IMG/VR virus record: IMGVR_UViG_2585427765_000009
Direction: 5' to 3' (one strand)
From: a virus
Taxonomy: Duplodnaviria; Heunggongvirae; Uroviricota; Caudoviricetes
DNA: 23,882 nt
The notes below the pieces were generated by a model. It ran no database searches. It worked only from the letters and a program-made list of their open reading frames with translations, and was not told the origin of the DNA. Below are positions 21,128 to 23,882 of the stretch, in pieces. Made by a program: the position numbers and the translations under genes. Numbering within the stretch: the stretch's first letter is position 1; each line of letters opens with the position of its first letter.

Positions 21128-21406
21128 TTACCTCCAGATGCGTTGCTGGAATGTGTGGGACGGACGCGGTGGGCGTTCGGAGTAAGGCAATCTGACTGAG
21201 ATTATCCAGTGACGGTAGTCGAGGCTAAGGGCTTTTTTAACCTCGTATCCGCGCCTGCGGTAACACTGAATTATCCATTCAGCCTGCTCTTCAGTGCATG
21301 GTGGATGCTGGAACCAGTCCGATTTGAATGCATGAAAACGCCGTCCGCACCTGCTGGCAAAGACGGCAGAATCATCAGAATTGTGTAATTTGGTATCGTG
21401 CGCCAT
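21128..21406 (-). CDS. Hypothetical protein coupled upstream of the DUF968 gene
   Basis: ORF ends 1 nt before the DUF968 start; start uncertain (ATG 21406 or ORF-track start 21517). Confidence 0.45.
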   Translation of the reverse strand: MAHDTKLHNSDDSAVFASRCGRRFHAFKSDWFQHPPCTEEQAEWIIQCYRRRGYEVKKALSLDYRHWIISVRLPYSERPPRPSHTFQQRIWR

Positions 21407-21769
21407 CGGTTGTCTCTGCTGGCGCAGCAGGTGCCAGTTGTTCAGGCTGGCGTATAAAGTATAAATAAACTGGTTCCAGTGTAAAGCCCCTACATTAATG
21501 GAATAAAAGTCAAACAACAGATTGTTGGGATAAACACAACGCTTATTATTAAAAGCGATTAGATAAATTAAATTTTAATGTTATGCAATTTTACCAGATC
21601 ACCATAACATCTCGTTTGAAACCACCGAAACAACAACCATATCAATATTGATTATGTTAAAGTGAGTAAATATGGAAAACAACAAATCTGCACATTACGC
21701 TCCTTTCTTATCTGTGATACTTTTTGTTTTATGCTGTGTGTGGGCATTATTTTTATAAAAATATTTACA

Positions 21770-21796
21770 GATAAAATAAACCCGCCGAAGCGGGTT
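21770..21796 (-). terminator. Predicted intrinsic terminator of the hok transcript
   Basis: Minus-strand AACCCGC-TTCG-GCGGGTT followed by TATTTTATCTG. Confidence 0.55.
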
Positions 21797-21864: not shown

Positions 21865-22020
21865 TTACTCCTCAGGTTCGTAAGCTGTGAAGACAGCGAC
21901 CTCCGTCTGGCCGGTTCGGATTCGTACCTCGCAGAGGTCTTTCCTCGTTACCAGTGCCGTCACTATGACGGTTAAACAGATGACGATCAGGGCGATTAAC
22001 ATCGCCTTTTGCTGCTTCAT
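21865..22020 (-). CDS. hok: Hok/Gef-family type I toxin (HokD/RelF-like)
   Basis: MKQQKAMLIALIVICLTVIVTALVTRKDLCEVRIRTGQTEVAVFTAYEPEE, near-identical to Gef/HokC as recalled; SD AAGGAGAAG; ORF-track start at 22077 is an in-frame upstream ATG. Confidence 0.9.
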   Translation of the reverse strand: MKQQKAMLIALIVICLTVIVTALVTRKDLCEVRIRTGQTEVAVFTAYEPEE

Positions 22021-22278
22021 AGCCTGCTTCTCCTTGCCTTTCGGCACGTAAGAGGCTAACCTAGATTTGCCGTTCATAGATTGAGCCTCAGATTAATGTT
22101 AAACGTCTTGCAGGACGCGTAATGTTAACTGGGGCTTTTCTCTATCTGCCTTTGGTGTTCATGCCCGAGGCAGATAGCCTCAAGCACCCGCAGTCATTCT
22201 ACTTAACTAAGATTTCCCCGCAAACCGTTTTTGTCCAGCACAATAAATATCCAACTAAACCAATGGAGTTCGCTGTAT

Positions 22279-22458
22279 TTACCGCCAGTATTCAATGCAC
22301 ATGACCGCCATGAACACCCCTAAAAAAAGGGCATTTATATATCCAAATATTAATATCAAAACATCAACTTTTTCCATATACCTTGCTGTGAAGATGATGG
22401 GCATACATGATACGAACAACCAGAACGCAACAAACAAAAACTGCAATGCGTTTTTCAT
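22279..22458 (-). CDS. Hypothetical small membrane protein (59 aa, two predicted TM helices)
   Basis: ATG 22458 with SD AGGAGG; MKNALQFLFVAFWLFVSCMPIIF...ILIFGYINALFLGVFMAVMCIEYWR; AT-rich. Confidence 0.45.
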   Translation of the reverse strand: MKNALQFLFVAFWLFVSCMPIIFTARYMEKVDVLILIFGYINALFLGVFMAVMCIEYWR

Positions 22459-22671
22459 TATTCCTCCTACAATCAATGCGCAATTACATTTAAACACACC
22501 TCAATTTGGCCGGACATATAAATATCTAAACTAGAAAAAATCACTTACATAGCGTTACAAACTCTTTAGTCTAAAGGTTCATCGTAAAACATTCCCCATA
22601 CTTATCAGTCCGTTCCGTGCCAGGTAGCTTATTGCCTTATCTGGCAACCTATATGAATCGCCACAGATAAT

Positions 22672-23484
22672 CTAGACACTTCCGAGCCGCTGATAATATT
22701 GTTTTTCGTATTCAGTTGGTGGCATATGATCACTCGAACCATGCCGACGCTTACTGTTATAAAACATTTCGATGTAATCAAAAATATCACCGCGAGCTTC
22801 TTCTCGCGTTCCGTAGATCTTTTTCTTTATCCGTTCACGTTTCAGTAACTGGAAAAAACTTTCTGCGACTGCGTTGTCATGACAGTTACCGCGACGGCTC
22901 ATACTGCCCTCCAGCCCGTGTGATTTCAGGAACGACTGCCACTCATAGCTTGTGTACTGACTGCCTTGATCAGAATGAACCAGCACCTGCTTTTGAGGAT
23001 TACGTCGCCACACGGCCATCAGAAGTGCATTCAGGACAATATCCTTTGTCATCCGGGGCTGCATTGACCAGCCAATAACTTTGCGCGAGAACAGGTCAAC
23101 AACCACAGCCAGATACAGCCAGCCTTCGTGAGTCCGGATGTAGGTGATGTCCGTTACCCAACGCTCATCCGGTGCTTCCGGGTTGAACTGCCGCTGGAGC
23201 CTGTTGGGCGTCACGATGCTGGTTTCACCCTTACGTGCCCGTGGGCTACGGTACCCGACCTGAGCCCTTATCCCGGCACGCTTCATCAGTCGCCAGACAC
23301 GGTTAACTCCGCACTGTTGTCCGGTATCCCGCAGGTCGAGGTGGATCTTGCGATAACCATAAACGCAACCCGACTCCAGCCAGAACTGCTTTATCAGCCC
23401 CGTCAGTCTCAGGTCAGCATGATGCCGCCGTGAATCCGGCTGCTGAAGCCAGGCGTAAAAACCACTCGGATGCACATCCAGCAC
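22672..23484 (-). CDS. IS3-family transposase orfB (DDE domain); true N-terminus supplied by frameshift fusion with orfA
   Basis: WVTDITYIRTHEGWLYLAVVVDLFSRKVIGW...HSDQGSQYTS...NAVAESFF motifs. Confidence 0.85.
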   Translation of the reverse strand: MLDVHPSGFYAWLQQPDSRRHHADLRLTGLIKQFWLESGCVYGYRKIHLDLRDTGQQCGVNRVWRLMKRAGIRAQVGYRSPRARKGETSIVTPNRLQRQFNPEAPDERWVTDITYIRTHEGWLYLAVVVDLFSRKVIGWSMQPRMTKDIVLNALLMAVWRRNPQKQVLVHSDQGSQYTSYEWQSFLKSHGLEGSMSRRGNCHDNAVAESFFQLLKRERIKKKIYGTREEARGDIFDYIEMFYNSKRRHGSSDHMPPTEYEKQYYQRLGSV

Positions 23485-23540
23485 CCGACAAAGCAGTCGG
23501 ACAGGCCAGCAATGGGTGTTGTCACGGATAAAGGCGTACC

Positions 23541-23819
23541 TCAGTCGGACAGCTTTGCGAAGTACGCCGCGGCTTTTTTTAATATGTCCCGTTCGTCGGT
23601 AACCCGCTTCAGCTCTTTCTGGAGGCGTCGGATCTCAGCCTGAGCGTCTGACTGGACTTTATTGGTTGAGGAATCCGGGCCATATGCCTTTATCCAGGCA
23701 TAAAGACTGTGGGTGGTGATACCGAGACGTGTTGCCACGCTGGAAACAGAATGGCCGCGATCAACAACCTGTTTTACCGCTTCAATTTTAAACTCTTCGG
23801 GATAACGCTTACCGCTCAT
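23541..23819 (-). CDS. IS3-family transposase orfA
   Basis: HTH region plus leucine-zipper-like C-terminus ending AAAYFAK; SD GAGAGGTG; ORF-track GTG at 23825 or ATG at 23819. Confidence 0.85.
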   Translation of the reverse strand: MSGKRYPEEFKIEAVKQVVDRGHSVSSVATRLGITTHSLYAWIKAYGPDSSTNKVQSDAQAEIRRLQKELKRVTDERDILKKAAAYFAKLSD

Positions 23820-23882
23820 GGGCACCTCTCTTTAAGTCATCTTAAATGACTCTGAGGTGTCTGTTAAACCCGTGGCGATTCA

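Follow-up and report, generated by a model that had tools for sequence, protein, structure and literature searches.

Type I toxin loci typically combine a structured leader with an antisense RNA, and hok/sok systems, such as parB of plasmid R1, are self-sufficient. GhoT, a type V toxin of about 57 residues, has two transmembrane helices, and class II holins and pinholins such as S21 are proteins of about 60-70 residues with two hydrophobic helices. T5 Llp, phi80 and N15 Cor, and lambda Bor are small phage lipoproteins with soluble domains that reside in the outer membrane and protect the lysogen. Finally, the YebO-related HK97 gp15 is one of several small superinfection-exclusion proteins that are encoded by prophages and located in the inner membrane; the prophage expresses it, and once in that membrane it prevents genome injection (PMC3594210, which cites Cumby et al. 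2012). Here we compare with these systems a 59-codon ORF from a lambdoid E. coli prophage, and we propose, with a probability of roughly 0.6 that includes the function, that it is a real gene for a very hydrophobic envelope protein acting as an independent accessory protein of the inner membrane.

The window, by which we mean the whole 23,882-nt stretch of DNA that was analysed, covers the late-to-early part of a Qin-type lambdoid E. coli prophage whose genes all lie on the minus strand. Going upstream along that strand, lysis and Q/RusA/DUF968 genes are followed by a PHROG_1212 gene, an AT-rich gap, hok/mok/sok, the ORF and an IS3-family element. The ORF is situated in a nin-like stretch, with replication genes on one side and Q on the other, and its earlier placement in a prophage early region is roughly right. 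The features to which we refer are the following:

21779..21796, minus strand: intrinsic terminator of the hok transcript, and the first one met when reading on from the ORF
21865..22077, minus strand: mok frame, with hok (21865-22020) nested inside
22015..22189, minus strand: hok mRNA leader and sok region (Rfam RF01794 sok, 110 bits, E 1e-25)
22196..22223, minus strand: putative hok promoter TTGCGG-16-TAGAAT, predicted from sequence, at the left edge of the mobile hok/sok cassette
22279..22458, minus strand: small-protein ORF, 59 codons plus stop, clade A of a two-clade Escherichia/Shigella orphan family (from the ORF list and the paralog)
22322..22328, minus strand: T7 homopolymer within codons 44-46, the site of rare frameshifted alleles (55-residue variants P0019, P0021, P0024 and P0025; L179)
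22405..22416, minus strand: codons 15-18 (F-V-S-C), a lipobox-like segment in the two-clade alignment, S17-C18 being invariant in both clades
22459..22578, minus strand: 120-nt intergenic leader from the stop of the upstream pseudogene to the ORF start (promoter scan, folding z-score, nucleotide diversity 0.024)
22463..22468 (22468-22463), minus strand: Shine-Dalgarno (SD) sequence AGGAGG, 4 nt 5' of the ATG, in the context TAGGAGGAATAATG
22579..22653, minus strand: 3' remnant of a degraded pseudogene upstream of the ORF, truncated by the IS (frameshifted and with an internal stop according to PGAP)
22654..23882, minus strand: IS3-family insertion sequence with TGAATCGCCAC inverted repeats at both ends

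The ORF extends from an ATG at 22458-22456 to a TAA at 22281-22279 and encodes the product MKNALQFLFVAFWLFVSCMPIIFTARYMEKVDVLILIFGYINALFLGVFMAVMCIEYWR, the spacing between SD and ATG being slightly short but acceptable. The earlier note had described a 59-residue ORF with an AGGAGG SD and two hydrophobic helices, some 260 nt upstream of hok on the same strand and next to an IS boundary in AT-rich DNA, and each element of that description was recovered from the sequence, its hydropathy and an AlphaFold2 model; the strand, left unstated there, is minus. The distance from the ORF stop to the hok ATG (22020) is 258 nt and that from the ORF start to the IS3-family end is 195 nt, while the local GC content is 0.35-0.37 versus about 0.5-0.58 in the flanking genes, a distinct composition of the moron-like kind. 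The IS transposase is transcribed toward the ORF and hok, and homology of the window to other loci starts at 22653, that is, at the IS edge. In strain E203449, which is 100% identical to the window, the host gene rspB lies directly beyond the IS (L002, 7073-8281), which implies that the immunity, replication and integration regions have been deleted and that the IS has replaced the whole early region.

Two further reading frames of this neighborhood deserve mention. One is an unannotated hydrophobic ORF of 28 residues (MENNKSAHYAPFLSVILFVLCCVWALFL; window 21672-21758, plus strand), which points toward hok and lies where the GC content falls to about 0.30, in another AT-rich segment flanked by the hok terminator and the PHROG_1212 gene. 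All 25 fetched loci that have this segment carry an identical copy, and K-12 has rem in its place. On the minus strand, a 129-residue ORF (window 21128-21517) matches PHROG_1212 (function not known, E 3e-35) in its C-terminal 66 residues only, and since PGAP calls a 92-residue version, its true start is uncertain.

In dinucleotide shuffles of the 470-nt AT-rich stretch, an ATG ORF of at least 59 codons arose in 21% of cases, and one that also had an SD in 0.5%. The length of the ORF by itself is weak evidence for a gene, so that homology rather than length settles whether the gene is real. We note that a T-rich second codon position yields hydrophobic residues automatically. A tblastn search of plasmid records retrieved a paralog in two chromosome-derived records, with 40.7% identity across all 59 residues, exactly 59 codons and coinciding start and stop positions. 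This paralog, hereafter clade B, belongs in these records and in other E. coli strains to a badly degraded prophage between ttcA and uspF, in which an integrase fragment and a DUF1627 fragment are the only annotated features.

Clade A, to which the ORF of the window belongs, and clade B share 41% amino acid and 59% nucleotide identity, and their 72 substitutions include no indel and no stop. The differences fall on codon positions 1/2/3 in the proportion 25/16/31, with dN 0.44 and dS 2.3. When neutral evolution was simulated with substitutions matched in number and spectrum, the frame stayed open in 3.3% of the trials, and the observed BLOSUM62 score was never reached in 20,000. When all six frames were compared with the paralog, the proposed one gave a z of 5.55 and the five others z values of at most 0.32. 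Conservation in related prophages, suggested earlier as a check on the gene, is likewise evident, as 92 of 93 copies are intact among IMG/VR contigs sampled with the SD and codons 1-5 as the sole anchor. The existence of the paralog, the frame specificity of its similarity, the simulations and the intactness of the copies together argue for a protein-coding gene under protein-level selection: at the level of sequence comparison they demonstrate long-term purifying selection on the amino acid sequence in the proposed frame, and the ORF is very probably a genuine gene for a small membrane protein. Length, termini, conserved blocks and protein-level selection are all shared by the ORF and the paralog at the ttcA site, as expected of an orphan protein family.

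The ttcA fossil (strains such as ST131 and BH100, which we take to be phylogroup B2; L003 5235-5296, L005, L184/L185) retains the integrase and DUF1627 fragments, the intact paralog and a hok that lacks its 5' part and is stopped prematurely. Across four strains that carry it, 34 variable sites were counted in 1,700 nt of flanks and one in the 180-nt paralog ORF. Immediately after the stop codon, about 26 nt (TAAATAcaGcGAACtcCATTgGTT) are kept between the otherwise diverged clades (window 22253-22278; L003 5181-5206); this block may be a functional 3' element, as far as its conservation indicates, and no hairpin or terminator was predicted within it.

Two alternative gene models were set aside. 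Some GenBank records carry a 72-residue version with a GTG start, whose sole SD-like sequence abuts the GTG, and in the paralog an in-frame stop lies 18 nt before the ATG. On the opposite strand, a 79-residue ORF (window 22295-22534, plus strand) appears in deposited phage records as 'hornerin' (vB_EcoS-813R8, 640R1) or 'hypothetical protein' (PhiR42_1); since stops interrupt it in the paralog and its similarity there is not in excess, this annotation is probably erroneous.

Variation within clade A is more equivocal than the comparison between clades. Nucleotide diversity over 143 intact copies is 0.011 in the ORF, 0.024 in its immediate flanks and 0.071 in the sok/mok leader, the ORF value being about half that of the flanks, a difference that is not significant. 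An AGGGGG variant of the SD (position -7) is present in 54 of the 143 sampled copies. All six common polymorphisms of the ORF in IMG/VR loci (V16A, M28I, V31I, I37M, Y40H and M53T) are nonsynonymous and conservative, with no synonymous counterpart, which is compatible with neutrality at a ratio of about 3:1 between nonsynonymous and synonymous sites (p about 0.2) and very unlikely under the low dN/dS observed between clades. As read from these alleles, strong constraint explains the pattern less well than relaxed constraint or diversifying selection, to which near-neutral exchanges of hydrophobic residues may be added as a possible source. Two of the alleles, I37M and Y40H, bring back residues of the paralog (LMFGH).

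Clade A DNA was found in 1,584 of 5,426 complete E. coli genomes (about 29%) at 95-100% identity, and clade B DNA in about 1,043-1,180 (about 20%), with ST131 and other B2 pathogens among the carriers; the ST131 strain MB1159 harbors both clades in one genome (H80 and H106). The exact clade A protein occurs on at least 1000 contigs, where it is labelled 'hypothetical protein' or 'putative membrane protein', and three sequenced inducible phages carry the ORF. RefSeq has no feature beneath clade A DNA in the 60 rows listed or in the annotated regions inspected, where PGAP never calls the ORF, and none for the clade B ORF among the matches listed. K-12 lacks the ORF, and K-12 small-protein surveys are thus uninformative about it, having never seen it.

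Family searches with the 59-residue protein retrieved no Pfam family at E <=1, no NCBIfam match, no PADLOC family and a single PHROG match at E 0.93; accordingly, no holin, known superinfection-exclusion or defence family was matched in PADLOC, PHROG or Pfam. A HMMER scan of 1.84 billion representative proteins with a two-clade profile recovered the two known clades and two spurious eukaryotic repeat proteins only, a scan of species-representative genomes gave Shigella and one chance match only, and a degenerate-motif scan of viral contigs showed no third clade among the matches listed. A full-text literature search for the peptide strings found no paper. Judged by these searches, the family is a previously undescribed orphan, confined to Qin/Rac-type lambdoid prophages of Escherichia/Shigella.

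The reading of the product as a small membrane protein, put forward in the earlier note, is supported by its conservation in related prophages, by a GRAVY of 1.31 and by two helices (residues 2-24 and 31-58, mean pLDDT 71) in an AlphaFold2 model built from a shallow alignment of eight sequences. A Foldseek search of BFVD with this model returned only generic helical hairpins (E at least 1.9), a hairpin of 59 residues carrying no fold information. The N-terminus bears a charge of +1 in clade A and +2 in clade B and the loop a charge of 0 or -2, and by the positive-inside rule these charges suggest an N-in, loop-out, C-in arrangement. Kept between the clades are W13, the block S17-C18-x-P20-I21-I22-x-T24, the block F38-G39-x-x-N42-A43-L44-x-x-G47-V48-F49 and the terminal I55-E56-x-W58-R59; no significant clustering of these conserved residues on one helical face was detected.

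In the mechanism that we favor, the protein would insert into the inner membrane, either as an N-in/C-in helical hairpin or as the lipid-anchored peptide described below, and its intramembrane blocks SCxPIIxT, FGxxNALxxGVF and IExWR would contact a membrane component of the host or of an incoming phage. The product would be no killer toxin and no part of hok/sok; it would benefit the lysogen as an accessory of the moron-like kind, for instance by keeping phage DNA out of the cell or by altering the activity of a membrane protein. This mode of action is drawn by analogy, as the family has two clades only and no characterised relative. Among systems in which a prophage membrane peptide is not toxic, the nearest functional parallel would be HK97 gp15, which like the ORF product is a small hydrophobic protein of a lambdoid prophage encoded in a compositionally distinct insert. 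The two nevertheless differ in that they show no sequence relation by Pfam, PHROG or PADLOC, in that gp15 belongs to a tail operon and the ORF to a nin-like region, and in that the ORF has no promoter or terminator of its own that we could find.

Indeed, crude consensus scans, which a weak promoter may have escaped, gave no convincing sigma-70 promoter in the 120-nt leader or the upstream pseudogene, and no terminator was found between the ORF and the hok terminator (21796-21779). With neither signal found, the ORF falls outside the formal definition of a moron, and its expression may depend on the phage early-right transcript or, in this strain, on read-through from the IS. A transcript of the ORF, lacking a terminator, would run on into the hok locus.

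A variant of the proposed structure has signal peptidase II cleaving between S17 and C18, so that residues 1-17 would be a signal peptide and the mature product a lipid-anchored, single-pass peptide of 42 residues held by the lipid on Cys18 and by helix 2. Under the permissive PROSITE-type definition, a lipobox reads [LVI..][ASTVI..][GAS]-C at residues 15-35, after an uncharged h-region preceded by an N-terminal K or R. Applied by eye to the alignment, L-F-V/A-S-C18 of clade A and I-V-I-S-C18 of clade B fit this rule, and the match gains weight from S17-C18 being unchanged throughout the two clades and all listed variants, from positions -2 and -3 varying only among lipobox-allowed residues (F-V/A-S-C and V-I-S-C, respectively) and from a K or R at one of residues 1-3 with an uncharged h-region of 11-13 residues behind it. 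Phe at -3, however, is unusual and fails the strict consensus, the hydrophobic stretch runs on for seven conserved residues beyond the cysteine (MPIIFTA / VPIILTS), and AlphaFold draws a single continuous helix over residues 2-24; lipobox-like matches are, moreover, known false positives in first transmembrane helices. The possible lipobox after a short positive N-terminus in a prophage accessory gene recalls Llp, Cor and Bor, from which the product would differ in keeping a transmembrane helix, its lipidation being putative. We consider processing of this kind unlikely, and it is compatible with the main explanation, of which it changes the topology and not the biology.

It is distinctly unlikely that the ORF encodes a membrane-damaging toxin of its own, type I-like or GhoT-like, that is silent in the lysogen and kills or arrests the cell when expressed. 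At 59 residues, with extreme hydrophobicity and two predicted helices, the product does have the build of the small hydrophobic peptides of type I loci, and it is encoded beside a membrane toxin in AT-rich, probably H-NS-silenced prophage DNA; the conserved Asn of helix 2 together with the small residues G39, A43 and G47 could also support oligomeric pores. Against this stand the lack of any match to Hok/Gef or another toxin family in Pfam, NCBIfam or PADLOC and the architecture of the locus. The 152-nt leader folds at -23.4 kcal/mol (z +1.04 against shuffles), which is not unusually structured, and leaves the SD exposed rather than sequestered. Sequence scans showed no opposite-strand promoter- or terminator-like sites within or beside the ORF in clade A, those in the clade B locus are within the chance range for AT-rich DNA and are not conserved between the clades, and sok is the only Rfam RNA at the locus. 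An unstructured leader with an exposed SD, and the lack of conserved antisense signals in these scans, speak against an arrangement like that of type I toxins; in addition, no antitoxin ORF is adjacent, and the gene is intact in remnants stripped of all phage regulators. With GhoT the product shares its length and the predicted two-helix hairpin, and differs in showing no similarity by Pfam or NCBIfam and in having no GhoS-like partner gene. Class II holins such as S21 are similar in size, in their two hydrophobic helices and in the small-residue spacing of helix 2, whereas the ORF is about 6 kb from the lysis cassette (essD, rrrQ), ends in IEYWR without a charged tail and matches no holin in Pfam or PHROG.

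A more far-reaching reading, which we hold improbable, makes the protein an envelope defence factor engaged in an arms race, in which it would block DNA entry or another membrane step of competing phages, or one half of a two-component membrane module with Hok. An arms race would explain why every common clade A polymorphism changes an amino acid. If either version were true, RefSeq annotation would be missing a new family of peptides that act at the membrane to exclude phages or modulate a toxin, and that roughly a third to a half of E. coli genomes carry.

The proximity to hok had also led the earlier note to raise a functional pairing, and the ORF product might accordingly modulate Hok, as an immunity factor, co-toxin or membrane co-factor, or transcription through the ORF into the hok leader might control hok. 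The hok gene of the window (Pfam HOK_GEF E 3e-23; hokD according to PGAP) and the ORF encode small membrane peptides on the same strand and within the same AT-poor/AT-rich prophage mosaic, and the two are linked in both clades. A hok sequence lies directly downstream of the ORF in each, that of clade B being a fragment 82% identical to the hok of the window that starts 55 nt past the ORF stop, and the adjacency is therefore older than the split between these deeply diverged clades, i.e., ancestral. In about 150 sampled loci the ORF was never found apart from hok or hok remnants, and the interval between the two contains no terminator.

The linkage is nevertheless one-sided. The clade B hok has lost its 5' half and contains a premature stop, and the ORF next to it is intact; only three of 80 Hok-carrying phage records contain the ORF. 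In mEp460, PPompW and 933W, which encode a 92-100% identical Hok and no ORF, homology to the window begins at about 22209-22235, 45-70 nt past the ORF stop and at the putative hok promoter, a boundary which implies that the mobile hok/sok unit excludes the ORF. Moreover, PhiR42_1-type loci have an IS and flxA-ydfV-relBE between the ORF and hokD, and hok/sok systems are known to be self-sufficient. At the level of the products and their genes, the ORF lacks a HOK_GEF match, has two hydrophobic segments instead of one, and is without a mok-like overlapping frame, a Sok-like RNA or a structured leader. With hok/sok found without the ORF, and the ORF intact beside a decayed hok, the functional pairing is not supported and we deem it quite improbable; the linkage is best explained by common descent in a single phage lineage, that is, by ancestral synteny. 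A mobile cassette comprising both the ORF and hok was considered and rejected, as an apparent upstream break at -206 proved to be a divergent patch and 78 of 83 loci share the upstream DNA.

In many related prophages, those of the PhiR42_1 type (L004, 5001-8900), the IS and flxA-ydfV-relB-relE are inserted exactly at the hok start codon (window 22019-22034), parting hokD from the mok/sok leader, which stays beside the ORF. Homology of the K-12 Qin prophage (L183) to the window ends at about 22034, and the relBE-hokD operon of K-12 looks like a further-deleted derivative of the PhiR42_1-type arrangement.

Lastly, that the ORF is non-functional, either a chance frame in AT-rich DNA or a decaying gene, is very improbable: its commonplace length in shuffles, the silence of PGAP, a pseudogene as upstream neighbor, the wholly nonsynonymous clade A polymorphism and the frameshift alleles at the T7 run are what such an account can draw on, and they are met by frame-specific amino acid conservation with the paralog, by the retention of start, stop and length without an indel, by the intactness of nearly all copies and by a strong SD.

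Overall, an independent accessory protein of the inner membrane would place the ORF within a familiar class, that of the small prophage membrane peptides, with no sign of an unusual mechanism. The ORF also helps to clarify how the hokD locus was laid out ancestrally, the relBE-hokD arrangement of K-12 being a rearranged, derived form. Small membrane proteins are systematically missed by annotation, and the ORF is an example, the wrong strand having been annotated in some phage records; as a real gene, it is one more candidate among the few accessory membrane peptides of prophages.
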